NCBI GenBank assembly: GCA_029778565.1
Contig: JAKOQC010000249.1
Span: forward strand, 45,611-109,610
DNA length: 64,000 nt
Origin: a bacterium
Lineage (GTDB): Bacteria; Patescibacteriota; Saccharimonadia; CAILAD01; BJGX01
Reading direction: 5' to 3'
A model generated the notes under the pieces. It ran no database searches. It was not told the origin of the DNA and worked only from the letters and a program-made list of their open reading frames with translations. Below, one piece after another: positions 24,008 to 63,041 of this stretch. The stretch's first letter is position 1; the number at the start of each line of letters is the position of its first letter. Position numbers and translations under genes: made by a program.

Positions 24008-24011
24008 AAGT

Positions 24012-24659: not shown

Positions 24660-24671
24660 TACTCTATAGTA

Positions 24672-24699: not shown

Positions 24700-24718
24700 T
24701 TATATCTGGAATCTATTA

Positions 24719-25060: not shown

Positions 25061-25061
25061 C

Positions 25062-25256
25062 TTAGATTCCTAACATTTTCTTAACGTTTTTACTATCACC
25101 CTTAGCAGCATCGTGTTCTAGCGTGTAGGCACGTTTACGTGCAGCTGATTTTAGCGTAAGTTTGTGCGCCCGTGTAGCTTTACGGTGCATTACTTTTCCG
25201 CTACCAGTAACTTTTACTCGTTTAGCGACTGTTTTGTTAGTCTTAATCTTTGGCAT
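25062..25256 (-). CDS. rpmI: 50S ribosomal protein L35
   Basis: [33 protein letters not shown] matches bL35. Confidence 0.9.
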
Positions 25257-26663: not shown

Positions 26664-26668
26664 AATTG

Positions 26669-27554: not shown

Positions 27555-27564
27555 TAGCAGCTAT

Positions 27565-27891: not shown

Positions 27892-27896
27892 ATAAT

Positions 27897-29414
27897 TTAG
27901 CGCTGGGCAACTTGTGGTCGATACTGTAATGCTTCGGTGAAGTGAGTTATATTAATCTCTTTACTGTTGTCGAGGTCAGCAATAGTGCGTGCAACTTTTA
28001 AGACTCGCATGTATGATCGGGCAGACATATTAAAATGATTGTATGCTTGGCTGGCTAGCTCTTCTACTTCATTATTAAGCATACAGTATTGCTTAACTAA
28101 TTTATTGTCCATTTCGTGATTGCATGTAGCATATGATTCTGCAAACCTTTTAGCCTGAATCTCCCGAGCTGCTTTTACACGTTTAGCAACGGTTTTTGTG
28201 TCTTCTTCATTGTGAATTTCAAACAAGGCTTTGCGCTCGGTCTTAGTGACTTCAACAATAAGATCGATTCTATCAAGTAATGGGCCAGATACTTTTGTAC
28301 GATAGCGATTAATCTGGCTTGGTGAACAATTACATGTATTGCTCGGGTCGCCATCATACCCACATGGGCAGGGGTTTTGTGCTGCAACTAAAAGAAACTG
28401 AGCTGGAAACTGATATGTAGCACTGGCGCGCGAAACAGTAATTGTTCCATCTTCGAGTGGTTGGCGCATTACCTCGAGTACATGCCGTGGGAACTCAGGT
28501 AATTCATCTAAGAAAAGTACTCCTCTATGTGCGAGACTAATTTCGCCTGGTTTAGGATGGGTACCGCCACCAATTAGCGCAATATCGCTCGCTGTGTGGT
28601 GAGGACTACGTAAGGGGCGAGTAGTAACAACTTCTGAGTTATTGTGCCCAGCCAAGCTGTGAATGCGGGTAATTTCGAGCATCTCTGAATAACTTGGTGC
28701 AGGTAGTAAGCCAATAAGTGCTTTTGCGAGCATAGTTTTGCCGCTCCCAGGTGGGCCGGAGAGGAGAATATTATGATTGCCAGCGGCGGCAATTTCGATG
28801 GCTCGGCGAGCTTGGTGTTGGCCATAAATTTCTGTCATATCTACGCTTGCCGCCCTAGTATTGGCCTGAATAACGGTTTTGTTGAGTGGCAAGAGAGTTA
28901 TCTCGCCAAGTAGATGTTGATAGAGTTCGAACAAGTTTTTTACCGGTATGACTTCTATGCCTTCAATAATAGCCGCTTGTTTAGCAGAGTCGGCCGAGAT
29001 AAAGAGCCGGGTAAAGCCAAGTTCTACAGCCATTTGTGCCGTAGCTAATGCTCCAGAAACTGCTCGAGTGCTACCGTCAAGCCCAAGCTCGCCATAAAAT
29101 AAGCTATTCTGAGGAATTTTTTCTATTTGGTTACTCGCCAAAAGTAGACTTGTTGCCATAGCGAGGTCGTAACTTGAACCGGTTTTTGGGATGTCGGCTG
29201 GAGCAAGATTGAGGGTAATGCGGCGTGGTGGGAGATGTAGTCGTGAGTTTTTTAGCGCCGAGCGCACTCTTTCTTTAGCCTCATCGACAGCTTTATTGGC
29301 CAGACCAACAATAATGAAGGCCGGCAAACCGTTATACATATCGGCTTCTACCTCTACTAACTGAGCTTGTAAACCAATATGACTAATAGTATGTACTTTT
29401 GCTAACATTTTCAC
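27897..29414 (-). CDS. comM: YifB/ComM-family Mg-chelatase-like AAA+ ATPase
   Basis: N-terminal Lon-like domain, Walker A LLSGPPGSGKTMLA, Walker B VLFLDELPEF, C-terminal MCM-like helix bundle. Overall YifB architecture. Confidence 0.85.
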   Translation of the reverse strand: MKMLAKVHTISHIGLQAQLVEVEADMYNGLPAFIIVGLANKAVDEAKERVRSALKNSRLHLPPRRITLNLAPADIPKTGSSYDLAMATSLLLASNQIEKIPQNSLFYGELGLDGSTRAVSGALATAQMAVELGFTRLFISADSAKQAAIIEGIEVIPVKNLFELYQHLLGEITLLPLNKTVIQANTRAASVDMTEIYGQHQARRAIEIAAAGNHNILLSGPPGSGKTMLAKALIGLLPAPSYSEMLEITRIHSLAGHNNSEVVTTRPLRSPHHTASDIALIGGGTHPKPGEISLAHRGVLFLDELPEFPRHVLEVMRQPLEDGTITVSRASATYQFPAQFLLVAAQNPCPCGYDGDPSNTCNCSPSQINRYRTKVSGPLLDRIDLIVEVTKTERKALFEIHNEEDTKTVAKRVKAAREIQAKRFAESYATCNHEMDNKLVKQYCMLNNEVEELASQAYNHFNMSARSYMRVLKVARTIADLDNSKEINITHFTEALQYRPQVAQR

Positions 29415-33993: not shown

Positions 33994-36900
33994 TTATGTG
34001 TGGTGGTTTTTCTTATCTGTAACGTAGAGGATATAAGCCAAAAGAGAGGCAAGAAGCAATATGCCAATAATGGATGACCACCAGATGAAGATATAAGTTC
34101 GATTAGGATTGTTATTGCGTGTCCTGCCAGTGTTATCTGGGTTGTTATTATTGCTATCGACTATTGTAACAGTGCCTTCAATAGTGCCAGCTGGATGCAA
34201 TACATATCCATTCGTGTTATCTGTTACTGTTTTGGTAGTCGGGCTTACTGGGCTTGGTGTAGGAGGAATTGGCGTATCTTGGAATGTCCAGTATGTGTTG
34301 CCACCACTGTTTATACTGTCGTAAGCAATCATTACAGACGCATTAATATTATTGCTATCACTTACATCTAGATACTGCAAAGTACGGCTGCCTTGCGCAT
34401 CTATTTGCCAAGGAGTACCCGGAGAAGAAGATACGAGTGTGAGTAGTTCTGTAGCGGAGCCGCCTTTTAGGATGAGATCTCCCAGTATGGTCTCGGTACC
34501 ACCAGCAGGGAAGGTGAGAGTATCGGCCGAGGCTACAATTTTGGTTAGGTTATTAAAGGTAGTGCCCATAATAATCTGGTTGCTGCCATCGAGGATTACT
34601 GTTCCGCCATTAGCATTAAAGGTAGAGCCAGTATTGATAGTAAAGTTACCGCCTACAGTCATGTTGGCACTCGTTGCAGTAAAAGTACCATTATTAATAA
34701 CACTAAAGTTACTATTTATATCTAGCGTGTTATATGTGCCAAGGTTAAGATCGGTGCCATCGATAACAAGATTATTAGCGTTTAGGCCTGTAAAACCATT
34801 GAGAGAATTAGAAGAATCAATCTGTAGTATCCCCGATAAATCGTTAAGCGTTCCTGTACCAGAGAAGGTACCAAAAACATAGAGAGAATCTGTATTGCCC
34901 ATGACTATTACTGGATTGTTACCTAGTGGAAAAATACAGTCTGAGCCGACCGAAAAGTAACCCGCCGATTTATTGAACGTTACTAAATTAATGACCGCAT
35001 TGCCACAGAATGCATTCTGATCTTTAGCACCATAAAAAGTAATAGTACCACCGTTAGCATCAAAGGTAGCACCATTATAATTGACAGTAAAATCGCCACC
35101 TATCGACATTACCCCGGCTGGTGCAGTAAAGCTAGAAAAGCTACCCTGAGAAAAATTTGTAAAAATATCAACCGAAGAGAAGTTACTAAAGTCCACGCTA
35201 ACATTAGCTGCAATAAATACACTCCCGCCAACCAATAAGCTATCAAAGCCGGTTAAAGCGTTGGCAGAGCCAATAGTAAGCAGAGAAGCAGAACTAAGAA
35301 AACTTAGTGTACCAGTACCATTGAAGTTACCATTGAGAATAATATCACCAGAATTTGTAAATGTAGGATTATTACCCAACTCAAAACTACAATCAGAATT
35401 GAAAGTTTTTGTGCCAGTATTGGTAAACCTAACCTGATTAAATGTTGCCCCGCCACAGATTATTGTAGCTGTACCATCACTAAACTCAGTGGTGCCCCCA
35501 TTGGCATTAAAAGTAGCGGCCGGGTTGATTGTTAATGCTTTCTGAAAATACATTGTGCCCGTAGGTGCAATGAAAGTGCCAGAATTTATTGTAACCGTAG
35601 AAGGAAAGTTAACACCAGTCACCGGCACAGTAACACTACCTCCTGTCTGGGTGTATGTTCCAGTTAGACTAAACGTTAAGAAACTACTAAAGTCGAGTGT
35701 CGCGTTAACCTCTGCAAATGAACCCGCTGACAGGCCCGAAAACCCAGACAACGATCCGGCACTATTGATTGTCAGGAGGTTTCCGGTAGCTGCCGAGGCT
35801 ATGGTGAGTGTGCCGCTACCAGAGAGTGTACCGTTTAGGATGAAATCTGTGGTCGTACCACTGCCAATAGTTGGGTTATTGCCAAGTGGCAAGCTACAAT
35901 CGCTACCAATAGTTTTTACACCAGCTGTATTAGTAAATGTCACCAAATTAAACACAGCACTATTACATGCAATAGATGCCGTAGTTGTACCGTTAAAATT
36001 TACTGTTCCACCATTTGCTGTAAAGCTACCTGCCGTAATACTGAATGCACCACCTATAGACATCGTTCCACCTGGGGCCGTAAACGATCCCGAACTCATG
36101 CTAAATGCTGTACTAATGGTAAAGGGAGTGTAGCTCCCAGCATTAAAACTACCTCCGGCAATTGTAAGATTCGCTACAGAGAGCCCCGTAAACCCGGATA
36201 GACTAGAGCCGCTATTGAGGGTAAGGGTGCCGGCAGACTGTGTTAGGGTGCCCGTCCCAGACAGCGTGCCGTTTAGCACAACCCCTTGTGCAATAGTCGG
36301 ATTGTTACCAAGCGGTAATGTACAAGTACTATTGACTGTCTTAGCTGCAGTGTTATTGAAAGTTACCAGATTAAACGTTACACTTCCACAACTAAGAGTT
36401 GACGTTGAGCCGGTAATGTTAACTGTGCCACCATTCGCATTGAAGGTAAGCCCAGCTGTGAAGTTCAGACCTGAAGCACTAAGGGTTCCGGACGGAGCTG
36501 TGAATACAGATGTTGCACCTAACGAAAAGCTTCCAGTCACAGCAAAAGTGGTATAGCTGCCAGCATTTAAAGTACCGTTGATTGTTACATTACTTCCTGA
36601 GTTTATACCCGAGAATCCGGAAAGAGTACCCGTTGTGCCCAATATGAATGTTCCTGTTGTAATAGAGAGTGTGCCGCTGCCAGAAAGTGTACCATTTACA
36701 GTAATGGCATTGGTAATAGCGGGGCTGCTCCCTACCGGAATAGTGCACCCAGAACTAATTGTTTTTAGGCCCGTATTGGTAAAGGTTGCCGTATTGAGTG
36801 AAATACCATTACAAGCTATTGTTGCGGCACCACCTGAGAAGTTGACCGTACCGCTGTTGTGGTTAAAGGTCGGAGTGCCCGTTACTGTAACAGCGCCACT

Positions 36901-37320
36901 AATAGATGTTGTGCCAGAACTCGCAGTGAATGTCCCACCAGAGAGCGTAAAGGCCGCCATCGTGAATGACTGATTGGATGCAGTAAAACTCCCAGTAGCC
37001 TGCGAAAATGTGGTTGTAGTTGCGAAGGTGCGAGCTAAGGTGATTGTGCCAGTATACCCAGCAGCAATGGTTAATGTGGCCACACTTGCTGGCGCACCGG
37101 CATCTATCGTCGAATTCTTGGTCGACGTTGCATTAAAGGTAACCGTATCGCCAGCTATCGGACAGGTATCGGTAGTCCAGTTTGCACAGGTACTCCAGTT
37201 ATTATCAGCCCCACCACCATCCCAGGTGAGAGAAGCGGCGTGAGCGTGCAGGGGGTTAGCAAACAGAGATAAGAGGCTCGTAAACACTAAAAGAACCACT
37301 ACAGAGTAAGTAAGTAGCAA
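33994..37320 (-). CDS. giant (1108 aa) secreted, C-terminally membrane-anchored repeat protein, Thr/Gly/Asn/Ser-rich beta-helix-like; putative surface adhesin
   Basis: Signal peptide MLLTYSVVVLLVFTSLLSLFANPLHAHA. About 8 degenerate ~110-aa repeats (FNANGGTVN...C...FNLVTFNNT...S.C.LPLGNNPTI...LNGTLSGSGTL). Pro/Thr linker PPTPSPVSPTTKT, then C-terminal TM IFIWWSSIIGILLLASLLAYILYV plus KKNHHT. Confidence 0.6.
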   Translation of the reverse strand: MLLTYSVVVLLVFTSLLSLFANPLHAHAASLTWDGGGADNNWSTCANWTTDTCPIAGDTVTFNATSTKNSTIDAGAPASVATLTIAAGYTGTITLARTFATTTTFSQATGSFTASNQSFTMAAFTLSGGTFTASSGTTSISGAVTVTGTPTFNHNSGTVNFSGGAATIACNGISLNTATFTNTGLKTISSGCTIPVGSSPAITNAITVNGTLSGSGTLSITTGTFILGTTGTLSGFSGINSGSNVTINGTLNAGSYTTFAVTGSFSLGATSVFTAPSGTLSASGLNFTAGLTFNANGGTVNITGSTSTLSCGSVTFNLVTFNNTAAKTVNSTCTLPLGNNPTIAQGVVLNGTLSGTGTLTQSAGTLTLNSGSSLSGFTGLSVANLTIAGGSFNAGSYTPFTISTAFSMSSGSFTAPGGTMSIGGAFSITAGSFTANGGTVNFNGTTTASIACNSAVFNLVTFTNTAGVKTIGSDCSLPLGNNPTIGSGTTTDFILNGTLSGSGTLTIASAATGNLLTINSAGSLSGFSGLSAGSFAEVNATLDFSSFLTFSLTGTYTQTGGSVTVPVTGVNFPSTVTINSGTFIAPTGTMYFQKALTINPAATFNANGGTTEFSDGTATIICGGATFNQVRFTNTGTKTFNSDCSFELGNNPTFTNSGDIILNGNFNGTGTLSFLSSASLLTIGSANALTGFDSLLVGGSVFIAANVSVDFSNFSSVDIFTNFSQGSFSSFTAPAGVMSIGGDFTVNYNGATFDANGGTITFYGAKDQNAFCGNAVINLVTFNKSAGYFSVGSDCIFPLGNNPVIVMGNTDSLYVFGTFSGTGTLNDLSGILQIDSSNSLNGFTGLNANNLVIDGTDLNLGTYNTLDINSNFSVINNGTFTATSANMTVGGNFTINTGSTFNANGGTVILDGSNQIIMGTTFNNLTKIVASADTLTFPAGGTETILGDLILKGGSATELLTLVSSSPGTPWQIDAQGSRTLQYLDVSDSNNINASVMIAYDSINSGGNTYWTFQDTPIPPTPSPVSPTTKTVTDNTNGYVLHPAGTIEGTVTIVDSNNNNPDNTGRTRNNNPNRTYIFIWWSSIIGILLLASLLAYILYVTDKKNHHT

Positions 37321-50319: not shown

Positions 50320-50718
50320 ATGCTTTCACAACGTTCTGTCATACTACTTTCTATATTTGGGCTCGTTTTTTCATTTATTATCTCTACTCTAGGGGTGGTA
50401 TATGCCTTATTTACGTATACGCCTGCTAAATTGGGTCCAGCGGGTATTACTTTTTGGTTTATTGGCATACTAATAAGTGTAGGAAGTGTTATAGCTTTGC
50501 TTGGTTTCTTGTGGAAGTTACGTCACGAAGAACATCGTTTGACCGCTGCAAAGGCACTTACTAGCTCTTTGCGTACAGGTTTCTTGGTGGGTTTTACGGT
50601 ATCGATTTTATTGGCTCTCTCGAGTTTGAGAAGCCTAAGTATTCGTGATATTATCTTATTTATTCTTGTAGTAGTGGTAATAGAAATCTATTTTCGTACC
50701 AGAAAGAAAAGAGTATGA
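50320..50718 (+). CDS. hypothetical membrane protein (3-4 TM)
   Basis: Hydrophobic ORF overlapping the pheS start by 4 nt. Confidence 0.3.
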   Translation: MLSQRSVILLSIFGLVFSFIISTLGVVYALFTYTPAKLGPAGITFWFIGILISVGSVIALLGFLWKLRHEEHRLTAAKALTSSLRTGFLVGFTVSILLALSSLRSLSIRDIILFILVVVVIEIYFRTRKKRV

Positions 50719-51701
50719 CCTCACAGAACGACATAATTAAGGCCCTAGAGGCTGATTTAGTGCAAGCGAGCAACGAGCATGCAATTGCGCAAGTTAAATC
50801 TAAATATCTTGGTAATAATAGTTTTATTTCTGAGCAACTTCGCTTGTTGCCAGGCTTAGCCCCAGAAGAAAAAGCCCAAAAGGGTAAAGAGCTGAATATT
50901 CTCAAAAACCAGATAGAACATGCAATTACCGAGGCACGCGAGCAGTTATTGTCATCACAGCAATTTCCAATAAAAGACATATCTCTGCCAGGGCAGAGAT
51001 TTAAGCAGCCCTATGGGCATATGCATCCTGCGAGTAGGGTGTTACAAGAAACCTATAAGATATTTTCAGATTTAGGCTTTGCGGTGGTAGATAGCGGCGA
51101 GATAGAGACTGATTGGTATAACTTTGAGGCTCTTAATATGCCCGAAACTCACCCGGCGCGTGAAATGCAAGACACATTTTATATAAAAAACAATGGCAAG
51201 TTAGATGTTTTGCCCCGTACGCACACGTCTGGAATGCAAGTACGGTTTATGGAGGCAAATAAACCGCCATTTAAAATTATTGTACCTGGCAGGGTGTTTC
51301 GGAATGAAGACGAAGACGTTACTCATATTTGGGCTTTTCATCAGATAGAAGGCCTGGTTGTGGGCGAGGGGGTATCGATGGCACAGCTAAAGGGAACATT
51401 GCTACATGTTGTGCAGGGAATTCTAGGGCCAGAGGCTGACATTCGTTTTCGGCCTAGCTACTTTCCGTACACCGAGCCATCTGTAGAGCTCGATTGTCGT
51501 TATAAGGGTCAGTGGTTAGAGTTGGGTGGAGCAGGAATGATTAACCCTGTAGTACTGCAAAATGGTGGTATAGACCCCGAAAAATATACTGGTTTTGCCT
51601 TTGGTTGGGGTGCTGAGCGAATCGCTGCTATTAAATATGGGCTCGATGATTTACGCGAGCTGTGGCGACCACGCTTTGAATTTTTGGAGCAATTTGTATG
51701 A
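50715..51701 (+). CDS. pheS: phenylalanyl-tRNA synthetase alpha subunit
   Basis: Class II motifs: HPARDMQDTFY-like (HPAREMQDTFYI), FRNEDEDVTHIWAFHQIEG, RFRPSYFPYTEPSVELD, GWGAERIA. Confidence 0.9.
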   Translation: MTSQNDIIKALEADLVQASNEHAIAQVKSKYLGNNSFISEQLRLLPGLAPEEKAQKGKELNILKNQIEHAITEAREQLLSSQQFPIKDISLPGQRFKQPYGHMHPASRVLQETYKIFSDLGFAVVDSGEIETDWYNFEALNMPETHPAREMQDTFYIKNNGKLDVLPRTHTSGMQVRFMEANKPPFKIIVPGRVFRNEDEDVTHIWAFHQIEGLVVGEGVSMAQLKGTLLHVVQGILGPEADIRFRPSYFPYTEPSVELDCRYKGQWLELGGAGMINPVVLQNGGIDPEKYTGFAFGWGAERIAAIKYGLDDLRELWRPRFEFLEQFV

Positions 51702-54481
51702 AAGTAAGTATACAATGGCTTAATAGCTATCTAAAAGAAAGACTTTCGACTAACGAAATAGTAGCCGCACTAGAACGCACCGAAGTTGAGATAGAAGAAG
51801 TTATTACACCACCAAAGCTAGATAAAAAAGTTATTACTGCCAAAGTGGTTAATGTAATAGACCATCCAAATGCTGATAAACTTAGGCTCGTTGATATTGA
51901 GTTTGGTAAAACAAAACGCCGGGTTGTATGTGGCGCGCCAAATGTTCGAAAAGGTTTGGTAGTGGCATATGCTCAGCCAGGCAGTGTGTTGCCAGAGGAT
52001 TTTGTTATTGGTGAGAGAGAAATTCGTGGTGAGAAATCGGCCGGCATGTTGGCCTCGGCGAAAGAGCTTGGCATGGGTAATGATCATAGTGGTATAGTAG
52101 AGCTCGACCCTGATCTCCCCCTTGGAATATCATTGTGCGACATAGAGAATATGGCCGATATTGTGGATGTTAAGACGCCAGCAAACCGATGGGATTTATT
52201 GTCGGTTTTGGGTTTGGCGCGCGAAATTTCTGCTAATTCTTCTAAAAATCAGGTTGTAGAACCAAAACGTGAGAAAATAGAATATAAAAACAGAGAAGTG
52301 GTGAAAGTCAAGGAAACTGGGGAGTGTGAACGATTTATTAGTGCGGTATTTAAAATTGATAGCAATGCAGAGACACCGGCTTGGATTGTGGAAAACTTAG
52401 AGGCGGCGGGGATGCGAGCTATACACCCCGTTGTAGATATTACTAACTTTGTCATGTTAGAGACTGGACAGCCTAGCCATGCGTATGACAGTAAAAAACT
52501 CAAGGGTGCTTTGCAAGTGCGTTTTGCCCGGGCCGGTGAACTCCTCTCTACTTTGGACGGGGTTGAAAGAAAACTGACAAAAGAAGATTTAGTTATTGCT
52601 GATAATTCCGGCGCAATTGGATTGGCGGGTGTAATGGGTGGAGCAAGTAGCGAAGTAAGCACTCAAACTCAAGAAATTGTACTAGAAGTTGCTAATTTTA
52701 ACAAAACCACTGTTCGTAGAAGTGCACTGCGCCATGGTTTGCGTTCTGAGGCGAGTACTCGATTTGAAAAAGGGCTACCTCTCCCTCTTCCCTGTTTCGC
52801 TTTTGAGCGAGCTGCGCAGTTACTTAAAGAAATTTGTAAGGCCGAACTTATTGGAGACGTAAATGATCAATTATATGCTTGGCCGTGGATTTCGTTTGTT
52901 GGTTTGCGTCAACGTCGCGCAGAAATGGTACTGGGTACAAAGCTGAATGAAAAAGAAATAATTGAAGGGTTGCGTGCGCGTGGGTTTAGTGCAGAACACT
53001 TTTCTCTTTCTGCCGAGGCTAAAAAACATCTTGGCAAGCCATATGTATATGGTGCTAGCTTTAAGAAAAACGGCGAAGAAGCTTTTGACTGTTCATATTT
53101 AGTAGAGAGAATATATTCAAAAATTGGGATTGCAATTGGCCATACTGCTCAGCAACAATTTAACTCTGGAAAGCCTGTCGAAAAAGATAATCTCAAACCT
53201 GGAGATTTAGTGTTTTATTCGGGTCATTGGGAAAAATTAGACGCCAAAAGCCGTGGCGATATTGGACATGTGGGGATGTATTTGGGTAAAAACCAAGTTA
53301 TTGAGGCAAGTGAATACGAGTTTGACACCAAAATTGGCAAGTATATAAAACGCAAAACTGCCGACGTACGCTATACTACGCTTGATAGTTATACGAGCAA
53401 TCCTACTTTTAAAGGTGCGCGACGGTATACTGAGAGCTTTAATCATATTATTGCTGTTGTTGCTCCCTGGTGGCGTACTGATATTGTAAAAGAAGTTGAT
53501 TTAATTGAAGAAGCCGCCAAAATATTGGGGTATGAAAATATGCCGAGCAAGTTGCCCGAATTACCGCCTATGGAAACGGCAGATCATCAAATGTTACCTG
53601 GATTAATGGGTATGCGCGAAGATTTAGTAGCTGCAGGATTATTTGAAGTAACTACGTATTCATTTGTTAGCGAGCAAGACTTGCTTGATACTCATATTGA
53701 TCCCACGAGTGTGTTGGCAATAGAAAACCCAATGAGCAAAGAACAGGCCTATTTACGTAACTCGCTTTTAAGTAGTCACCTACAGACAGTAGCTCGTAAT
53801 AATACATTCTATGAAAAAGAATATGGTTTTTTTGAGCTTGCTCGAATATACGAAAAATCTCCCCGCTCTAAAACATTAGCCCAAGAGAGCTGGCGACTAG
53901 CGATCTGTGCAGTTGGTAAAAACGGTCTCGAAAGGATAAAAAGTGTGCTCGATATGTGTGAAAGTCGCTACCAACTAAGGTTGGCGTACAAGCGCAGTGA
54001 AGAAGCCAATTTCTTACCCGGCCGAACAGCCACCCTACAGAGCCAGAGAATACCTGAAGTTAGGGGATTATATGGACAGGTTAAACCTATTTGTCTAAAA
54101 AAATTCTCAATTAGTGATGAGATAGTGTTTGCCGAAATTATATTGCCTGATCAGTCTATTTTTGCAGAAAGCACCCAAAAATCGGTGTCCCTTCTCCCCT
54201 ATCAGCTTGTTAGCCGCGACCTTACGCTCGAGTTACCCAATGAAGTTCTTTGGCAAAACATTGCATTGATTGTAAAATCGCAGAAACGTATATCTCGGGT
54301 GCAATTTCTACAGGAATTTGCCAGTGAAGAATTAACAAAAACAAATAAGAAACGGGTGAGTATGCGAATTTGGATTGATTGCGGGGCTAATCCTAGCCAA
54401 AAAGAGATAACAAAATATATGAGTGCTATAGAAAGTACCTTACTTGCTGACAAAACGCTAAAGCAAGTCAAAATAGTCTGA
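51698..54481 (+). CDS. pheT: phenylalanyl-tRNA synthetase beta subunit carrying a ~148-aa NlpC/P60 Cys-His hydrolase domain inserted in the B5 region
   Basis: B1, tRNA-binding (KVVNVIDHPNADKLRLVDIEFG) and B3/B4 editing domains, then B5...LGTKLNEKEIIEGLRARGF. Insert residues ~436-583 (GKPYVYGASFKKNGEEAFDCSYLVERIY...LKPGDLVFYSG...IGHVGMYLGKNQVIEAS). Then canonical B5/B6 resumes (IIAVVAPWWRTDIVKEVDLIEEAAKILGYENMP) through to the C-terminal anticodon-binding domain. Confidence 0.85.
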   Translation: MKVSIQWLNSYLKERLSTNEIVAALERTEVEIEEVITPPKLDKKVITAKVVNVIDHPNADKLRLVDIEFGKTKRRVVCGAPNVRKGLVVAYAQPGSVLPEDFVIGEREIRGEKSAGMLASAKELGMGNDHSGIVELDPDLPLGISLCDIENMADIVDVKTPANRWDLLSVLGLAREISANSSKNQVVEPKREKIEYKNREVVKVKETGECERFISAVFKIDSNAETPAWIVENLEAAGMRAIHPVVDITNFVMLETGQPSHAYDSKKLKGALQVRFARAGELLSTLDGVERKLTKEDLVIADNSGAIGLAGVMGGASSEVSTQTQEIVLEVANFNKTTVRRSALRHGLRSEASTRFEKGLPLPLPCFAFERAAQLLKEICKAELIGDVNDQLYAWPWISFVGLRQRRAEMVLGTKLNEKEIIEGLRARGFSAEHFSLSAEAKKHLGKPYVYGASFKKNGEEAFDCSYLVERIYSKIGIAIGHTAQQQFNSGKPVEKDNLKPGDLVFYSGHWEKLDAKSRGDIGHVGMYLGKNQVIEASEYEFDTKIGKYIKRKTADVRYTTLDSYTSNPTFKGARRYTESFNHIIAVVAPWWRTDIVKEVDLIEEAAKILGYENMPSKLPELPPMETADHQMLPGLMGMREDLVAAGLFEVTTYSFVSEQDLLDTHIDPTSVLAIENPMSKEQAYLRNSLLSSHLQTVARNNTFYEKEYGFFELARIYEKSPRSKTLAQESWRLAICAVGKNGLERIKSVLDMCESRYQLRLAYKRSEEANFLPGRTATLQSQRIPEVRGLYGQVKPICLKKFSISDEIVFAEIILPDQSIFAESTQKSVSLLPYQLVSRDLTLELPNEVLWQNIALIVKSQKRISRVQFLQEFASEELTKTNKKRVSMRIWIDCGANPSQKEITKYMSAIESTLLADKTLKQVKIV

Positions 54482-56082: not shown

Positions 56083-56541
56083 ATGGATCCCCAACAATCT
56101 CCTCCTAACCCAAATACTGTTCCTGCACCACAGCCAACAATCGAACAGATTGCTGCACAAAAAGGTGCTGCACCAAACCTACAACCATCCGCAGAGGCTA
56201 ATAATCCTGGGGTAGAAATTCAAAGCGGACAAGCAGAACTTGCACCTACGCCGAGTGTGGGCGCACCAGTTGCTAACACCCCATCAGCCGCAGTAGTAAG
56301 TACAAATACTCCTCCCCCGGCGCAAGTTGTGCATACTGGTAGTGTGCAAGGTCGTGCGCTACAAGCTCAAGACTTGGCAAATCTTTCAGCAAGTGATGAC
56401 GACCTAATAGAAAAAGAATGGGTAGATACTGTTGATAATGTGATTGAAAAAGATGAGGATGATCCCCTAACTGAGGATGTTGATCACAATACCGTGAGCC
56501 GAGCATATCAAAAGCAGCGATTTAATCTGGATGTCTCATAA
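56083..56541 (+). CDS. hypothetical Pro/Ala/Gln-rich acidic protein
   Basis: Low-complexity ORF directly upstream of the coupling-protein-like ATPase. Confidence 0.25.
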   Translation: MDPQQSPPNPNTVPAPQPTIEQIAAQKGAAPNLQPSAEANNPGVEIQSGQAELAPTPSVGAPVANTPSAAVVSTNTPPPAQVVHTGSVQGRALQAQDLANLSASDDDLIEKEWVDTVDNVIEKDEDDPLTEDVDHNTVSRAYQKQRFNLDVS

Positions 56542-56568
56542 ATTAAGAAATAACACCACCAGATATAT

Positions 56569-59073
56569 ATGAACCAATTTGTCATTTTTACTAGTATTTT
56601 GTTTCTGCTATTTGCCAGTGGTATATCTGTCTTAGCATATTTTTTGTTGCGCAAACGTGCACGGCATAGCAAAGATATTGAACGATCTCTGAAGATGGTA
56701 CCACTATTGGTCAAGCTTCCACCTCAAGAAGTAGGTGAAGATGGACGTGACAGCCGAGAGCTTATTAAAGAAAACATTGCCAAGGCTGAAGGTGTGTTTA
56801 ATTTATTAAGTGGTATAGCGACCGAAAAAGCTTCATATTATGGCAAAAAATACATTAGTTTAGAAATTATTGCTGAAGGAAAGTTGATTAACTTTTATAT
56901 TGTAGTACCCGTCAGTCTACTGAGTGCTGTGCAAAAAGCCCTAGTAGCCGGATATCCCAATGTACAGATAGAAACCGCCCAAGAAACAAATATATTTTCT
57001 GACAAAAGCAAAATAGCTGGTGTGCAGGGCGGTGAATTAGTCTTAGCTAAAGAAAGTATCTACCCTATTAATACCTACAAATCCACAGACTTCGACCCAT
57101 TGTCTGGTATACTCTCGGGACTAACCAACTTGGGCGATGGTGAGGGTGTGGGGATACAAATTCTTATTCGTCCGGCGGGAAGTGACTGGACTAAATATGC
57201 CCTAAAGCGTAGTAAAGAACATTTAGACCCGAGTAGCTCAGAAAATAAAGCCCTTAGTTTTGGCTCGGATGTATTGAAAGCACCATTTAAAGCACCAAGC
57301 TCGAGTGACAATGATAAAAAACCCGATAAACAACCCACTGCTATCGACCAGCGCAAGAGTGAGACAATCGAAGATAAGGCAAAATCGCCCGCTTTTGAAA
57401 CATGTATTCGTTTAATTGCTAGTTCTGACAATCCAGCACGTGCTCATGTAATGATTCAAGATTTACAACTTGGGTTTGCTCAACTCAGCCAGGGCGGCAG
57501 TAATGGTTTTAAATATCAAAGTGCTGATTCACCACAAGAAATTGCCACAAATTTTATTTTTAGATTCTTTCCTGTTGCCAAAAAGAAGAATGTATTGAAT
57601 GCGGTCGAACTCGCTACGATTTTTCATCTGCCAAGCGAGGTAATTGGTATTGCAACACAGCTCGAACGCAAAGCGGTAAAAGAAGTAGCTGCTCCAGCCG
57701 GTCTTCCTACGGAAGGCCTGAGAATTGGTGTAAACGAATATCGAGGGACAAACACACCGATCTATATTACCCAAGATGATAAGCGCCGCCACATTTACAC
57801 CATTGGTCAGACAGGAACAGGTAAATCAACCATGCTTACTAACTTAATGCTCCAAGATGCATATGCTGGTAAGGGTTTTTGTTTTATCGACCCAAATGGT
57901 GACGAGGCTGAGAAGTTTTTGGGACGAATTCCGGCTAATCGCGCTGAAGATGTCATTTACTTCAGTCCGGGAGATACAGAATTTCCTCTAGGGTTTAATA
58001 TTATGGAGTACGATCGTAATCACCCCGAACAGCGCGACTTCTTGGTGCAAGAAGCAATTTCAATGCTATATAAACTCTACGATCCGCAACATCAGGGTAT
58101 TATTGGCCCACGGTATGAACACTGGTTTCGAAATGCTGCTCTCACCGTTATGGCCGACCCAGAAGGTGGTACATTTATAGAAATACCAAAAGTATTTACT
58201 GACGATGAGTATTTAAAGAAGAAATTCAAATACGTTACCGACCCAACGGTGCAAGACTTTTGGACGGGTGAGATGGCTCAGACAGATGCACATTCTAAGA
58301 GTGAGATGCTAGGATGGTTTGTTTCAAAATTTGGTGCGTTTGCTAATAACGCCATGCTTCGCAATATTATTGGCCAGAAGACTTCAGCATTTAACTTCCG
58401 TCAGATAATGGATACCAATAAGATTTTGATTGCCAACCTCAGTAAAGGTTTGCTTGGTGAGTTGAATGCCAAATTGCTTGGTATGATATTTGTGATTAAG
58501 TTACAAATGGCAGCTATGAGTCGGGCCGATACACCCGAAGATCAGCGTGTAGATTTTGCTCTGTATGTCGATGAGTTTCAGAATATCGCTACCGATAGTT
58601 TTGCTACAATTCTTTCTGAAGCCAGAAAATATCACTTTAATCTTATTGTAGCCAACCAGTATATTGAACAAATTGATGAGCAAATTCGCGATGCGGTATT
58701 TGGTAATGTTGGTAGTATGATTATTTATCGAGTAGGTAATGATGACGCTGAGTATATTGCAAAACAATTCTCACCACAGTATGATGCCAGCGATATCGCC
58801 AATATCCCTAATCACTACGCTGCTGCTAAGATTATTGCTGATGGTATTCCCACAACCCCATTTAGTTTGCATGGTGACCCGCCGGTTGATGGAAATGTTA
58901 TTAATACTAATTTGCAGAATGCTATGCGCGATCTTTCTCGAGCTAAATACGGACGACCAAAAGCAGAGGTTGATGCTGAAATTGCTCGGAGCCTGAGTGA
59001 CAGTTTACCCACCGAACCAGCGGGTGGCGACGCAGCTGCTGGTGGTATGGGTACAGAACAGACTGGAAATTAA
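56569..59073 (+). CDS. VirD4/TraG/TraD-family type IV coupling-protein-like ATPase (N-terminal TM anchor)
   Basis: N-terminal TM. Walker A IGQTGTGKSTML, Walker B FALYVDEFQNIA. C-terminal IVANQYIEQIDEQIRDAVFGNVGSMIIYRVGNDDAEYIAKQF matches the TraG-D_C pattern (Qs..QL...yG..a..i.gN....i.f...d..tA). Confidence 0.55.
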   Translation: MNQFVIFTSILFLLFASGISVLAYFLLRKRARHSKDIERSLKMVPLLVKLPPQEVGEDGRDSRELIKENIAKAEGVFNLLSGIATEKASYYGKKYISLEIIAEGKLINFYIVVPVSLLSAVQKALVAGYPNVQIETAQETNIFSDKSKIAGVQGGELVLAKESIYPINTYKSTDFDPLSGILSGLTNLGDGEGVGIQILIRPAGSDWTKYALKRSKEHLDPSSSENKALSFGSDVLKAPFKAPSSSDNDKKPDKQPTAIDQRKSETIEDKAKSPAFETCIRLIASSDNPARAHVMIQDLQLGFAQLSQGGSNGFKYQSADSPQEIATNFIFRFFPVAKKKNVLNAVELATIFHLPSEVIGIATQLERKAVKEVAAPAGLPTEGLRIGVNEYRGTNTPIYITQDDKRRHIYTIGQTGTGKSTMLTNLMLQDAYAGKGFCFIDPNGDEAEKFLGRIPANRAEDVIYFSPGDTEFPLGFNIMEYDRNHPEQRDFLVQEAISMLYKLYDPQHQGIIGPRYEHWFRNAALTVMADPEGGTFIEIPKVFTDDEYLKKKFKYVTDPTVQDFWTGEMAQTDAHSKSEMLGWFVSKFGAFANNAMLRNIIGQKTSAFNFRQIMDTNKILIANLSKGLLGELNAKLLGMIFVIKLQMAAMSRADTPEDQRVDFALYVDEFQNIATDSFATILSEARKYHFNLIVANQYIEQIDEQIRDAVFGNVGSMIIYRVGNDDAEYIAKQFSPQYDASDIANIPNHYAAAKIIADGIPTTPFSLHGDPPVDGNVINTNLQNAMRDLSRAKYGRPKAEVDAEIARSLSDSLPTEPAGGDAAAGGMGTEQTGN

Positions 59074-59152
59074 TATACTGCTTAAGCCTTGCATAGCTAT
59101 TGTAGTATGTACTACAATAAAGCATAAGCAATTGTATATTTAAAGGAGAAAG

Positions 59153-61504
59153 ATGAAAATCGTAAATTTCCGAGATGTCGTCACTAACTTTAAGATTGGT
59201 GGCATCTCAAAAAACAAAATCTCGTTCTATGCCAAACGTCTTACTAAGGAAACTTCAGCACGACGACTGGCTTCACTACTTTTAGTCGGCCTATTAGTAT
59301 TCCAGTTTATTACGTTTATTGCTCCACCATCAGCTGGGCGGGCAGCAAGCTGTACGTCGAATGACATTATTAACTGTGGTATTGGTGATAGAAGTAACCA
59401 AGGTGTTTTAAATGCATTCAAAAGTACTGGTGCGATACAGCTTCTATACCAGGCAGGTGTTACCGATAATGATGTTTTAAATGGCCAAGCCAATGCTAAT
59501 ATTTGTCGTACACCTGGCCTGCTTTCGATGGGTCGAACCCAAGCGCCGGGATCATTCTTATATCCGGGTCATAATGACATATGGATTGGTGATGCGAGTA
59601 GCCGCTGGCTACAAAACTGTTTTGCAGGTGAATTACTGAACGTAAAAGTACAGGGTAGCACAATAGGTACGGGTGATCCCAATGCTTGGTACCAAGTAGG
59701 TATTCTCTACGACTGTGGTAACTTGGTATTTATTCCCACCTCGCCACATCAACAACCAAAAACCATTACCTGTTCAAGCTTGAATGTCTCTAGCTTTACA
59801 GCTACTGTTGGTCAACCAATCGTAGTTGCTGGTTATGCACACGGAGACAACATTAGTGCTGGCGAGTTAGTCGATATGGCCTATGGCGCCTATGATAGCG
59901 GTACTAATAACCTAGTAGGAGGTATTCCCCAAGGAAATCCCCTGGGGGCACAAGGTGTACCGCATGATGCAAATAATAACTTTATTGATAATGCTGGGCG
60001 AGCGTTTACCTTTAATCAACCAGGTACCTACGATCTTAGACTGCTAGTTGGATATGATAATAATGGGCAAAAATTGTTTGCCGCTGGTAGTGCTGCCGGA
60101 GATTGCGCTCGTACTGTTACTGTTACTCAACAAATGACATTACGATGTGCACAGCTAGATATTGTCGCCAAAACTGGCAATACGCCATTTACTCCAGGCC
60201 TAAAAGGCACAGCAGGCGTTGATGGTACTTCGGGTACAAAACCCTATCCTTCTAAATTCGAATATATTCTTTTGCAGAAATATACAGGCCCAGACAATCC
60301 AAGTTTGCCGATTGTTACCTATAACGGTGTAAAGTATTTAGAAGGTAATCCTAGTGGCGGGACTACTCGAATTACACACACCAATGCCAATCCTGCGGTC
60401 TATACCGACCCCGCATCTAGTCCAGCTTTCTCTGCTACAGAATTCAAACAAACTACACCAGGTGATTTCTTAATTATTCTCCGAGTAACCGACCAGAATA
60501 ATACAACTGCGCCAGAGAATCCAAACAACTGTTTTGTACCATTTACTACCACCCCTCCACCTGCAGAGTTTGCTTGTAAAACTCTCACTGCTGACCCTGC
60601 TACAGGTACCGCTCCACTGAAGGGAGTAAATCTAACCGCAACTGCAACAGTCAAAAATGCAGTGGTTAAATCGTACCAATTTGACTTTGGTGATGGCAGT
60701 GCTAAACAAACAGTTACGAGCAGCCAACTTACCGCCTCTACAAAACACGACTATAACAATCCGGGTAAATACACAGCGACTGTTAGTATAACAACCGATA
60801 GGGGTACCACGACAGATACCCAAACGTGTAAGACGGTTATTAATCCAACACAGGTGCAATATACGAAAAATGTAGCCAATATGACCCTGCTTACGAATGA
60901 CGGCAAACCCACCGACGCGAATAATCAGGTAGCAAAAGCCGGAGATACATTGCGCTACCAAATAGCAATTTGTAATGCTAATGGTGCACCCATTAATAAC
61001 TATGTATTCGAAGATGATGTAACCGACCTATTGTATTATGCTGATTTGGCAGACTTGGGCGGTGCTACCAAGGTAGTTAAAAATGGACAGACCAAGCTTG
61101 TCTGGCCTGCGACCGATATTGCCTCGTTGCCGAATGGAAAGTCATGTACTGATAGCTCAGGAAATATTATTCCAGCTAACTTTAGTGCACACTTTAAATC
61201 ATTTACTGTTAAGGTAAAAGATCCTATTCCAACCAAACCAAATGTACCACTCGACCCATCGGCCTACGATTGTAATATACAAGATAATTTCCATGGCTCT
61301 ATCGTTACTACTCCAATTGGTGTAGTACCAGCCAAACAAGTAGAATGTGCTGCGCAAAAATTACCACAAACTGGTGCAGGCATACCAATCTTTGTTATTT
61401 CGTTCTTTGCCGCGAGCTCAGTATTCCTATTCTTCCGCAACAGATTACTCAAACGTGAGCTAAAACTGGTCGAAACATTATCTGATGATGAAGGAGGCAT
61501 GTAA
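59153..61504 (+). CDS. LPXTG-anchored surface protein with PKD-like domain
   Basis: N-terminal signal/anchor (LASLLLVGLLVFQFITFIAPP). PKD signature YQFDFGDGSAKQTVTSSQLTASTKHDYNNPGKYTATVSITTDRG. C-terminal sorting signal LPQTG + hydrophobic stretch + RNRLLKR. Confidence 0.6.
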   Translation: MKIVNFRDVVTNFKIGGISKNKISFYAKRLTKETSARRLASLLLVGLLVFQFITFIAPPSAGRAASCTSNDIINCGIGDRSNQGVLNAFKSTGAIQLLYQAGVTDNDVLNGQANANICRTPGLLSMGRTQAPGSFLYPGHNDIWIGDASSRWLQNCFAGELLNVKVQGSTIGTGDPNAWYQVGILYDCGNLVFIPTSPHQQPKTITCSSLNVSSFTATVGQPIVVAGYAHGDNISAGELVDMAYGAYDSGTNNLVGGIPQGNPLGAQGVPHDANNNFIDNAGRAFTFNQPGTYDLRLLVGYDNNGQKLFAAGSAAGDCARTVTVTQQMTLRCAQLDIVAKTGNTPFTPGLKGTAGVDGTSGTKPYPSKFEYILLQKYTGPDNPSLPIVTYNGVKYLEGNPSGGTTRITHTNANPAVYTDPASSPAFSATEFKQTTPGDFLIILRVTDQNNTTAPENPNNCFVPFTTTPPPAEFACKTLTADPATGTAPLKGVNLTATATVKNAVVKSYQFDFGDGSAKQTVTSSQLTASTKHDYNNPGKYTATVSITTDRGTTTDTQTCKTVINPTQVQYTKNVANMTLLTNDGKPTDANNQVAKAGDTLRYQIAICNANGAPINNYVFEDDVTDLLYYADLADLGGATKVVKNGQTKLVWPATDIASLPNGKSCTDSSGNIIPANFSAHFKSFTVKVKDPIPTKPNVPLDPSAYDCNIQDNFHGSIVTTPIGVVPAKQVECAAQKLPQTGAGIPIFVISFFAASSVFLFFRNRLLKRELKLVETLSDDEGGM

Positions 61505-62127
61505 TGGCAGATAGAGCCGAGCTAGAGCCAGAAAGTGGCGCCGAGAAACTTGAGGTAAGCCAACTAAAAAAACTCGAGAAAGAAAAAGCACCAGAGGTTA
61601 GTAAAGCTGAGATAGAAGCTGGAGAAAAAGATTTGGCTCGCCGCCATGAAGCGGCCGAGAGAAATCTGAGTGCTGAAAAAAAACGTGAAGCTGATGCCGA
61701 GAAGAAGCGCGAGGCTGACCTAGAGAGAGAACGCAAAGAAGCTGAAAAACTCGAGAAGGTCGAGAAAAAACCACCAAAAGCCAAACCAGCGGCAAGCTAT
61801 ACCAAAAAAGAAAAGGCAACTGTTTATAAAAAAGAAATCAAGATGGTGCAGGCTCAGTTGCCACGCCGTAGTAAAACTTTTTCGAAAGTAATTCATAACC
61901 CAGCTGTAGAAAAAGTATCGGATGTAGCCGGTAAAACAATTTTGCGCCCCTCGGCACTTATTGGCGGTAGCGTTGTTGGCTTAGCAGCAGGCGTGACTGT
62001 TTATGCCATTGCTCGATTCTATAATTACGGCATGCCTAATTGGCTTTTACCAATACTTCTTATATTGGGTGCGCTGCTGGGTATTGCTGCAGAGCTTATT
62101 CTCAACAGATTTCGAACCACTGAATAG
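61504..62127 (+). CDS. hypothetical protein: charged Glu/Lys/Ala coiled-coil N-terminus, C-terminal two-helix membrane hairpin
   Basis: KEKAPEVSKAEIEAGEKDLARRHEAAERNLSAEKKREADAEKKREADLERERKEAEKLEKVEKK... then GGSVVGLAAGVTVYAIA / LLPILLILGALLGIAAELIL. Confidence 0.3.
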   Translation: MADRAELEPESGAEKLEVSQLKKLEKEKAPEVSKAEIEAGEKDLARRHEAAERNLSAEKKREADAEKKREADLERERKEAEKLEKVEKKPPKAKPAASYTKKEKATVYKKEIKMVQAQLPRRSKTFSKVIHNPAVEKVSDVAGKTILRPSALIGGSVVGLAAGVTVYAIARFYNYGMPNWLLPILLILGALLGIAAELILNRFRTTE

Positions 62128-62195
62128 TTTTACAACAAGAATTATTTCCTCGAGCCACTAAACTGGTGTAAAATAGTAACCATAAGCTTCTTCAA

Positions 62196-63041
62196 GTGAG
62201 GCAAATGGTTTTTGCTATGCTAAAAAAATATTTTCTCCCAGTTGTAAGTCTCATCTTGGCACTGTTATTCGCCTCAATAGCAACTTTTTCTGTTCGGGCA
62301 GATACGATTAGTCAAAGCTATACTGCTGCGGTAAATATTCCTGCTGGTTCACTGGTTGCTTTACAACAAGGCAGTAGCTCGCAGATAGTGCCAGCAGACT
62401 CTAGCAATACTGATAGTCTTCTTGGAGTGACGGTGGCTCCGCAGGCTAGTTTGGTAAACCTCAATTCAAACAATGGTAATACGTTGGTGGTTACATCGGG
62501 TAATGCGGTAGTTTTAGTAAGTAATATTAATGGCGATATTGCCAAAGGCGACTCATTAACAACTTCACCTATTAGCGGTGTAGCGATGAAAGCTACAGCA
62601 CCCGGTAGAATTGTCGGGATAGCAACAAATAGCTTTACTGCTGCGCAGGCGAGTTCACGACAAAAGATTGCAGACAAAAAAGGTGAATCAAGTGAAGTCT
62701 CGCTTGGTCAGGTGTCGGCAAATATTATGGTAGGTAACTATCAAAATCAACCCACCCTAACAGGCAATGGCATAATATCTGCCGTTCAGGCAGTTGCTAC
62801 CAGCACAACAGGCAAAAGTATTTCAACCGCGCGAGCTCTTTTGGCCTTACTGGTACTACTTATCTCGGTGGTTATTTCGGTACTTATTCTTTATACGGCA
62901 GTGGCTAGCAGTATCCGCTCGATAGGTCGTAACCCACTTAGTCGCCACTCTATTTTACAGAGTTTGATACAAGTAATTATTGCAGTGGTTGTAATAATGC
63001 TTTCTGGGTTTTCAATAGTATATTTAATTATTGGGCGTTAG
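62196..63041 (+). CDS. hypothetical exported Ser/Thr/Ala-rich protein with C-terminal two-helix membrane hairpin
   Basis: Signal peptide MLKKYFLPVVSLILALLFASIATFSVRA. C-terminal LLALLVLLISVVISVLILYTAVASSIRSIGRNPLSRHSILQSLIQVIIAVVVIMLSGFSIVYLII. Confidence 0.3.
   Translation: MRQMVFAMLKKYFLPVVSLILALLFASIATFSVRADTISQSYTAAVNIPAGSLVALQQGSSSQIVPADSSNTDSLLGVTVAPQASLVNLNSNNGNTLVVTSGNAVVLVSNINGDIAKGDSLTTSPISGVAMKATAPGRIVGIATNSFTAAQASSRQKIADKKGESSEVSLGQVSANIMVGNYQNQPTLTGNGIISAVQAVATSTTGKSISTARALLALLVLLISVVISVLILYTAVASSIRSIGRNPLSRHSILQSLIQVIIAVVVIMLSGFSIVYLIIGR

Follow-up and report, generated by a model that had tools for sequence, protein, structure and literature searches.

Saccharibacteria and other Patescibacteria depend on host bacteria, and the chromosomal, relaxase-less type IV secretion system (T4SS) found among them was the first T4SS for which essentiality to the bearer was demonstrated. 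Which ATPase couples substrates to such a system is the question raised by a five-gene stretch (positions 56083-63041, all on the + strand) of Saccharimonadia DNA lying in a 64,000-nucleotide (nt) window, by which we mean the whole stretch of DNA that was analysed. The genes, here called A to E, had been predicted to form one T4SS- or conjugation-like surface module containing a coupling ATPase (B), an LPXTG-type surface protein (C) and three unassigned proteins (A, D and E), possibly the remnant of a conjugative element. All five open reading frames (ORFs) are present (Table 1). We favour, with moderate confidence, the reading in which B serves a relaxase-less chromosomal T4SS encoded elsewhere as its coupling ATPase, A acts as an adaptor, regulator or substrate of B, and C and D are accessory.

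Judged by its sequence, B is an ATPase of the type IV coupling protein (T4CP) family, as predicted, and not an FtsK or HerA. It passes the Pfam cut-offs for TraG-D_C (25.7 bits; cut-off 22) and TrwB_AAD_bind (22.8 bits; cut-off 20.5) and falls below those for FtsK_SpoIIIE (17.3 bits; cut-off 24) and DUF87 (17.1 bits; cut-off 23.2). In a Pfam vote among 46 members of its family, TraG-D_C matched 46, TrwB_AAD_bind 45 and T4SS-DNA_transf 34 (best E 1.2e-11); the VirB4-type profile AAA_10 matched 16 of them, weakly, and the Pfam family for the VirB4 N-terminal domain (NTD) was absent from the match list of these 46 proteins. The best NCBIfam matches of B are TraD, TrbC and VirD4-like proteins, its PDB sequence matches are DotL and TrwB, and a weak match to CedD was also seen (E 0.0035). 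The family to which B belongs is very large in Patescibacteria: word-index matching gave more than 5,000 hits; the best 120 are 50-100% identical to B, and the sources of these 120, where named, are almost all Saccharibacteria or Patescibacteria.

Homologues of B carry the precomputed Pfam domain PF26449 (DUF8128) at their N-terminus. An exhaustive HMMER search with this domain alone returned 1,356 cluster representatives at 50% identity; among the matches listed, it stands at or near the N-terminus of proteins of up to ~2,000 aa, and a cluster look-up gave no names for the divergent ones. The DUF8128 profile matched no PDB sequence, its likeness to the VirB4 NTD being revealed by fold comparison only. 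The model of B has the VirB4-like two-domain fold, an NTD followed by a RecA-like C-terminal domain, here the nucleotide-binding domain (NBD), and ends in a low-complexity tail. The TrwB structure aligns to this model with a TM-score of 0.62-0.65, structure 8dol is among the fold matches, and VirB4 has a helical bundle at the NBD position where B has its all-helical insert, so the insert does not tell a T4CP from a VirB4.

We then compared the ATPase domain of B with 72,556 plasmids by tblastn. It matched 352 plasmid records, and the hosts are almost all monoderm bacteria or archaea: Bacillus accounts for 95 records, Streptomyces for 75 and Staphylococcus for 33, and haloarchaea and Sulfolobus are also represented. 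On plasmids of B. subtilis, S. aureus and Streptomyces, a relaxase of the 'replication-relaxation family' is encoded just downstream of the homologue, and in the first two both genes belong to a transfer operon that includes a separate VirB4-like ATPase of ~850 aa; in Natrinema and on Sulfolobus pTC it sits beside VirB4/TraC-like genes. The DUF8128 profile matches the T4CPs of Bacillus (E 3.7e-30) and S. aureus (E 3.2e-7) and gives no match to those of Natrinema, Sulfolobus pTC and Streptomyces, while the full-length profile matches all five (E 3.8e-63, 7.3e-22, 1.8e-48, 4e-34 and 1.1e-22, respectively; for Natrinema and Sulfolobus pTC, in the ATPase part). Neither profile matches the VirB4-like ATPases of the same five plasmids. 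Because the relaxase-adjacent plasmid T4CPs match and the plasmid VirB4-like ATPases do not, we class B with the T4CPs; its homology extends over the full length to a genuine subtype of coupling protein used in monoderm conjugation. This is consistent with the published nesting of the Patescibacteria VirB4 clade within the mating-pair formation (MPF) class MPF-FATA. The single best plasmid match is a separate case: a 395-aa, ATPase-only protein without the N-domain (35% identity, E 1e-63) on a plasmid of the alphaproteobacterium Sulfitobacter mediterraneus (locus L085, NZ_CP081110, 99994-101181), where its neighbours are transposase and recombinase genes; this protein may be a fragment that came from a Patescibacteria-like source.

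The prediction had called for a synteny check in relatives, which we ran on 80 related Patescibacteria loci from named genomes, using tblastn, de novo ORF clustering and family hidden Markov models (HMMs); neighbour counts refer to loci with sufficient flank only. The same core-chromosome neighbourhood recurs, its commonest order in Saccharibacteria being IF3-L35-L20 (minus strand), a ComM-like gene (minus), a gene (called TM9 here) for a ~130-aa membrane protein with four transmembrane segments, A, the ATPase, D (minus), C (minus), gyrB and gyrA. In 52 of 72 loci an A-like gene immediately precedes the ATPase (median gap ~7 nt), and TM9 is upstream in 43 of 64; among 67 loci, C adjoins the ATPase in 32, C and D occur together in 31, and gyrB is a neighbour in 53. 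Thus A, B, C and D group beyond chance, co-occurring across dozens of genomes, which E does not. The conserved core is TM9, A and B, with C and D as an accessory pair and E probably outside; the five genes do not form the single module proposed for them, one core member, TM9, lying outside the five-gene stretch altogether.

In the window this arrangement has been rearranged: pheS, pheT and an L,D-transpeptidase gene (LDT) have been inserted to separate TM9 from A, the C-D pair is inverted, and an atp operon takes the place of gyrBA. C and D usually run opposite to the ATPase (30 loci), a shared strand being seen in 3 loci and in the window, so the same-strand layout found here is derived. Further upstream, the ancestral order of M50 peptidase, RNase H, RNase P RNA, L20-L35-IF3 and ComM is retained at ~14-29.4 kb (14045-29414), and ComM is now ~21 kb away from the TM9 gene (50320), with other genes in between, so that the upstream neighbourhood of the module is broken in this lineage. 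The gaps between consecutive genes from A to E are 27, 79, -1 and 68 nt; a promoter and terminator scan gave promoter-like sites at chance level and, between the genes, no clear terminators on the + strand.

The module belongs to the vertically inherited core chromosome of Saccharimonadia and has relatives in other classes of Patescibacteria. B is conserved about as well as PheS in the same genome pairs (53-59% versus 54-61%), A, C and D evolve much faster, the five-gene stretch has a GC content of 0.426 (window, 0.41), and no integrase or relaxase lies near the module. In the other classes the ATPase is found among housekeeping genes (ribonucleotide reductase, Ddl, UvrD-like, SpoIID, MIP), again with a small gene directly upstream whose product has a different C-terminal motif. 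At loci L068, L069, L074, L076 and L081, for example, the A position is held by a different protein of 120-200 aa with a basic, Trp-rich, amphipathic C-terminus (e.g. SSWRWLAQWCLRRLKQVHLAIKK). A small upstream partner of the ATPase thus seems universal, yet not homologous across classes.

Published genetics of a cultured relative, Southlakia epibionticum ML1, bear directly on this unit. In this organism SEML1_0138-0147 has the order, strands and sizes of the common Saccharibacteria arrangement; the transposon-sequencing (Tn-seq) calls given here (essential, ES; growth defect, GD; non-essential, NE) are those of three successive samples, P0/P1/P2 (Wang et al., 2023; PMC10633639, Tables S1/S2). 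Correspondence with the window rests on synteny and gene sizes, not sequence. In the B position, SEML1_0142, a 1019-aa 'TraM recognition domain-containing' ATPase, is ES/ES/ES; SEML1_0141 (139 aa), in the A position, is GD/ES/ES with 0 insertions after selection; and SEML1_0140 (117 aa), in the TM9 position, is NE/GD/GD. SEML1_0143 (193 aa) and SEML1_0144 (535 aa, DUF11), both on the minus strand and in the D and C positions, are NE. Among the flanking genes, SEML1_0138 (YifB/ComM) is NE, SEML1_0145 (gyrB) is ES, and SEML1_0146 (gyrA) and SEML1_0147 (PAP2) are each GD/ES/ES. Relative to SEML1_0140-0144, the window differs by its pheST-LDT insertion, its C/D inversion and its atp operon in place of gyrBA.

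The T4SS of S. epibionticum (SEML1_0006-0019) is itself essential and 'lacks recognizable coupling and relaxase proteins', and the main text of that study does not mention SEML1_0141 or SEML1_0142 (Wang et al., 2023; PMC10633639). The gyrBA-adjacent DUF8128 ATPase of the SEML1_0142 type is a concrete candidate for this missing coupling ATPase. It has to be told apart from a second paralogue, SEML1_0293 (PF10412/PF12696/PF01935), which is NE/NE/NE and lies beside a Sigma70_r4/HARE-HTH gene (PMC10633639). The T4CP of S. epibionticum has been described as non-essential (Quinonero-Coronel et al., 2025; PMC12102498); the gene so described is most plausibly SEML1_0293, and this dispensable paralogue, as distinct from the essential SEML1_0142-type gene, probably gave rise to the label. 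A second DUF8128 paralogue is also seen in one locus of our sample (L078, 12220-15438; DUF8128 E 1.6e-73, 36% identity to B), with the same T4CP Pfam matches as B and with neighbours other than A, C and D. The pairing of the second paralogue with a Sigma70_r4 plus HARE-HTH protein recurs in two distant genomes (L078, 11065-15438; SEML1_0293/0294), and in L078 both DUF8128-ATPase paralogues are nearly adjacent.

From the plasmid homology, the conserved setting and these calls we infer a link between B and the T4SS, the module being built around a domesticated T4CP. B would form a membrane-anchored hexameric motor, and A would be its adaptor, its regulator or its first substrate; together they would recruit substrates and energise their transfer through the relaxase-less chromosomal T4SS. 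C would be exported by Sec via an extended signal peptide and then anchored to the wall by sortase, where it may serve as a surface or adhesion protein with a variable tip; D could contact the conserved cytoplasmic tail of C, or B, at the membrane; and E would belong with the neighbouring atp genes. In favour of the sortase step, S. epibionticum has two sortases.

Several observations weigh against this proposal. No T4SS gene lies within 8 kb of the ATPase in any of the 80 loci, and Pfam scans of the remaining window found no VirB4, VirB6, relaxase or sortase among ORFs of at least 120 aa (the short ORFs 2230-2757 and 25243-25848 on the minus strand and 27457-27891 on the + strand were outside the scan), in agreement with what had been noted for the first three. 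The fold alone does not separate a T4CP from a VirB4. The counterparts of A and B are called essential while those of C and D, linked like them by synteny and not by sequence, are dispensable in co-culture, and the essentiality call for SEML1_0141 could reflect a polar effect on SEML1_0142. C and D are absent from the ATPase neighbourhood in about half of the loci, their tie to B being one of gene order only, and the anchor HMMs (Gram_pos_anchor, TIGR01167) gave no match to C at E <= 0.1. Finally, 5,713 VirD4-like genes were counted in 2,918 of 3,035 Patescibacteria genomes and VirB4 in 2,417 of the 3,035, with 148 of the 5,713 VirD4-like genes near virB4 (Quinonero-Coronel et al., 2025; PMC12102498). 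T4CP-like genes being commoner than VirB4 and rarely near virB4, the ATPase may work without a T4SS.

That last point leads to the alternative that survives best, which we consider possible though unlikely: B, A, TM9 and D would be an autonomous, T4SS-independent translocase of the single Patescibacteria membrane. It might transport DNA or nucleoprotein inwards or outwards, like the archaeal Ced/Ted-type systems, or export a dedicated protein cargo. Besides the excess of genomes with T4CP-like genes over those with VirB4, and the near-complete separation of such genes from virB4, this reading can call on the VirB4-NTD-like domain of B, by whose counterpart VirB4 docks onto small membrane subunits; on the conservation of a small membrane protein and a small upstream gene, the latter replaced in other classes by a different one in the same position; on the housekeeping neighbours of the ATPase in those classes; and on the weak CedD match. 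Set against it are the lack of a conserved channel-forming polytopic protein in the neighbourhood, the fact that full-length plasmid homologues work as coupling proteins beside a VirB4 system, and the dispensability of C, the only obvious local cargo, where B is essential; moreover, VirB4 missing from metagenome-assembled genomes can reflect their incompleteness. More doubtful still is the full form of this idea, in which the DUF8128 ATPase, A, TM9 and D would together make up a minimal translocation machine of Patescibacteria, one that is essential, self-sufficient and independent of the VirB4 T4SS. If true, such a machine would represent an evolutionary intermediate in which a VirD4-type motor has kept a VirB4-type docking domain; by carrying DNA, nucleoprotein or a key protein from one partner to the other, epibiont or host, it would be central to the epibiotic way of life and so far unrecognised in that role.

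Returning to the coupling-ATPase proposal, the properties of its putative partners can be set out in turn. TM9 stands directly upstream of A in most Saccharibacteria; its family profile matches the window ORF with E 2.6e-8, and the protein has no Pfam family. A, the Pro/Ala-rich acidic protein of the original prediction, has the composition described, with a disordered-looking N-terminal part and no hydrophobic segment. Its conserved part is the C-terminal two-helix module (consensus A.D.DLIEKEWV.KAK.I...T..DPY...L.ADYLKKRYG). It has no credible Pfam or PDB relative, a marginal 36-residue match to YoeB (E 0.005) being treated as chance. A would be a partner of B in the cytoplasm.

C carries a conserved LPXTG-type sorting signal, as judged from its motif, hydrophobic segment and basic residues, and in this matches the description first given of it as a PKD protein with a sortase-substrate tail. 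The tail reads LPQTG-AGIPIFVISFFAASSVFLFF-RNRLLKR, the hydrophobic/transmembrane (TM) segment preceding the basic RNRLLKR. It is atypically long, counting 47 residues from the L of the motif to the C-terminus, with a further ~20 aa that are conserved and cytoplasmic; in 29 of 36 cluster ORFs the LPxTG lies 44-47 residues from the C-terminus. Conservation is concentrated in residues 21-200 and 560-783, the PKD/Ig middle being variable. At the N-terminus, the signal region has the consensus MFrKlvSNLpFsPaLvgQlgFYAKRLrKEe.tRR and an AxA-type cleavage site (ANA|AS in most homologues, GRA|AS in the window), and is followed by a ~130-aa domain ending in a near-invariant CGN motif. Towards the C-terminus lies a DUF11-like domain, for which the NCBIfam DUF11-type repeat scores 21.9 bits, just under its 24-bit cut-off. 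Minimal family members of ~265 aa consist of signal, DUF11 domain and anchor only. The extended signal was also considered as the marker of a substrate family and rejected locally, since each locus has one copy.

D is always paired with C. Predicted as a coiled-coil protein with a C-terminal membrane hairpin, it does have the hairpin; its N-terminal half is Glu/Lys-rich, charged and variable, and its conserved part is a cytoplasmic motif just before the hairpin. It has no credible Pfam family, and scattered sub-threshold matches (VirB3, 0.068; ATP-synt_I/ATPase_gene1, 0.2-0.3) were treated as noise.

The features of C raise the further possibility that B, A and D are a dedicated export and sorting system for C, recognising its extended signal and cytoplasmic tail. 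The parts of C that are most conserved do face the cytoplasm (the N-region ahead of the signal helix and the tail of ~20 aa that follows the LPxTG-TM segment) while its passenger domains vary, and C and D have stayed adjacent to B despite the inversion. We nonetheless think this improbable, given that C and D are dispensable where A and B are essential, that about half of the loci have neither C nor D nearby, that the signal region occurs on one protein per locus, and that the hydrophobic core and cleavage site of C are of the ordinary Sec type.

It is likewise quite improbable that B is an FtsK/HerA-type chromosomal DNA translocase that merely resembles T4CPs, with the proximity of gyrB-gyrA pointing to a role in DNA topology. 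Beyond the Pfam scores given above, B has neither the motor signature, four-TM N-terminus and gamma domain of FtsK/SpoIIIE nor the HerA central domain, HAS-barrel and NurA or defence partner of HerA. Replacement of FtsK by B was considered and rejected, S. epibionticum having a genuine, essential FtsK.

That the stretch is a remnant or part of a conjugative element, its coupling protein next to an LPXTG adhesin as in Gram-positive plasmids and integrative and conjugative elements, is highly improbable: the closest characterised relatives of B are plasmid coupling proteins and Gram-positive transfer operons do encode LPXTG adhesins, but the locus has no relaxase, integrase, VirB4, VirB6 or repeats, is flanked by aminoacyl-tRNA synthetase, L,D-transpeptidase and ATP synthase genes at normal GC, occupies the same core locus (ComM ... 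gyrBA) across the class with a PheS-like rate of change, is under strong purifying selection and essential in a relative, and includes in A, C, D and TM9 genes without relatives in the plasmid operons examined.

E looks exported and Ser/Thr-rich with a C-terminal hairpin, much as predicted, and has no Pfam family; it is lineage-specific, following D in the closest relatives only, and probably lies outside the conserved module. Just 3 of 81 loci have homologues (L003, L005 and L017), that of L017 being a 229-aa region of a 659-aa ORF ~7 kb away, and L084 has a same-sized gene in E's position. In L003, L005 and L084 the E-position gene lies between D and the atp genes, and in the window atpA starts at 63046, 4 nt after the E stop. 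The E hairpin was considered as a T4SS_pilin match and rejected (E 0.073, sub-threshold, and absent in the L005 homologue). Its GRNP loop recalls those of ATP synthase c subunits, without the membrane carboxylate. In L003 and L005, b-like (205 aa) and delta/OSCP-like (145-174 aa; OSCP 22.0 bits, cut-off 22.3) genes stand between E and atpA, and both are missing in the window and L084; no gene for an ATP synthase a or c subunit was seen near the atp operon. ATP synthase is reported to be dispensable in S. epibionticum.

The Pfam content of the rest of the window is housekeeping: ThrRS, ArgRS, TrpRS/TyrRS-type and PheRS synthetases, MurT/GatD and glycosyltransferases, along with genes for ComM-like and UvrD/AddA-like proteins, RmuC, SmpB, a bactofilin, RNase P RNA and tmRNA. 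Three further features stand out. PheT is oddly fused: within this tRNA synthetase subunit an NlpC/P60 cell-wall hydrolase domain, a peptidoglycan hydrolase fold, is inserted between B3_4 and B5; the insertion is shared by relatives L082 and L084, and the L,D-transpeptidase gene comes next. Beside tRNA-Val, the sole GC-rich stretch of the window (0.51 versus ~0.40) holds a 603-aa ORF with the C-terminal tandem repeat GLHLPKTIGGDLYLSGLTTAE and no Pfam family; the nearby tRNA and the odd composition suggest a foreign origin. Lastly, a large surface protein of 1108 aa has a signal peptide and a C-terminal TM anchor, with no LPxTG and no Pfam family.

Table 1. Coordinates of the module, its neighbours and other features in the 64,000-nt window
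Feature	Position (nt)	Strand	Residues (aa)	Description
TM9	50320..50718	+	132	Small 4-TM membrane protein, four hydrophobic segments
A	56083-56541	+	152	pI 4.06; 24% Pro+Ala
A, conserved C-terminal module	56380-56538	+	~50	Two helices
B	56569-59073	+	834	T4CP-family ATPase (by sequence)
B, N-terminal helix		+	1-29	Single hydrophobic/TM helix
B, DUF8128 domain	56656-57708	+	~30-380	VirB4-NTD-like fold (model/fold comparison)
B, NBD	57718-58968	+	384-800	RecA-like
B, Walker A	57805-57828	+	413-420	GQTGTGKS
B, insert in NBD		+	487-615	All-helical, in expected T4CP position (model)
B, Walker B	58564-58584	+	666-672	YVDEFQN
C	59153-61504	+	783	Surface protein
C, extended signal peptide	59153-59344	+	1-64	~35-aa N-region, then hydrophobic helix
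C, PKD_4	60599-60835	+	483-561	E 2.3e-13
C, DUF11-like domain	60905-61357	+
C, LPQTG	61361-61375	+	737-741	Sorting motif
D	61504-62127	+	207	Start overlaps C stop by 1 nt
D, cytoplasmic motif	~61861-61950	+		sR.FSK.IH.P.VEK.SE....TVARP
D, C-terminal hairpin	61951-62112	+	150-170 and 176-203	2-TM
E	62196-63041	+	281	Signal-like N-terminus; 21% Ser+Thr; C-terminal 2-TM hairpin of two hydrophobic segments
tRNA-Val	4036-4112
ORF beside tRNA-Val	4132-5943	+	603	C-terminal tandem repeat
Large surface protein	33994-37320	-	1108	Signal peptide, C-terminal TM anchor
PheT	51698-54481	+		tRNA synthetase subunit
PheT, NlpC/P60 insertion		+	446-541	E 5.8e-18

T4CP-like genes in Patescibacteria and the Pfam entry DUF8128 were already known. 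In the searchable literature we found no description of the VirB4-NTD fold of DUF8128 or of its presence in Bacillus and Staphylococcus plasmid T4CPs, none of the TM9-A-B(-D-C) module or of the distinction between an essential and a dispensable paralogue, and no paper on DUF8128 or a 'Pam' pilus link. A VirB4-NTD fold common to B and to the plasmid coupling proteins of Bacillus and Staphylococcus bears on the relationship between the VirD4 and VirB4 ATPases, and the sharing of DUF8128 supports an origin of the Patescibacteria system in monoderm conjugation. With A named as a candidate for the adaptor or a substrate, and C and D as accessory surface proteins, substrate coupling to the essential T4SS of an epibiont becomes a directly testable question.

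Among known systems, the local partners of B invite analogies only. Small proteins that partner T4CPs are known, including CagZ with Cagbeta, TraM with TraD and the DotL adaptors, and A resembles them as a small protein encoded beside a coupling ATPase. The Gram-positive transfer operon of pCF10 encodes the LPXTG adhesins PrgB and PrgC, and C recalls these as a wall-anchored surface protein encoded with transfer machinery; its ~35-aa FYAKRL N-region has, in principle, a parallel in extended signals of the YSIRK or ESPR type. Sequence and profile comparisons found no similarity of A, C or D to these T4CP partners or to PrgB/PrgC.

The ATPase itself can be placed more closely. From VirB4 (TrwK of R388; T. 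pseudethanolicus VirB4) B differs in sequence membership, scoring 12.3 bits against TIGR00929 with its cut-off of 643, and in having no VirB3, VirB6 or VirB8 encoded alongside it; Patescibacteria have their true VirB4 in another gene, SEML1_0008 in S. epibionticum. Nearest to B are the plasmid T4CPs WP_121549396.1 (B. subtilis NZ_CP032854, 886 aa) and WP_142255045.1 (S. aureus p2010-15611-1, 854 aa), which are homologous to it in both domains and like it in architecture and size. They stand upstream of a relaxase in a transfer operon, whereas B is chromosomal, has no relaxase or MPF genes nearby, and keeps Patescibacteria-specific partners, A, TM9, C and D, of which the plasmid operons have no relatives. 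In the Bacillus plasmid T4CP no N-terminal TM helix was seen, by eye only, and the Patescibacteria version of B appears to have gained its one. Canonical T4CPs such as TrwB and VirD4 have two N-terminal TM helices and no cytoplasmic N-domain of ~350 aa; compared with VirD4, TrwB (R388), TraD, DotL and Cagbeta, to which it is 15-17% identical, B has one TM helix and a VirB4-NTD-like domain. Because the Bacillus and Staphylococcus T4CPs share the DUF8128 N-domain, the two-TM N-terminus would mark a proteobacterial subtype and not the T4CP family as a whole.

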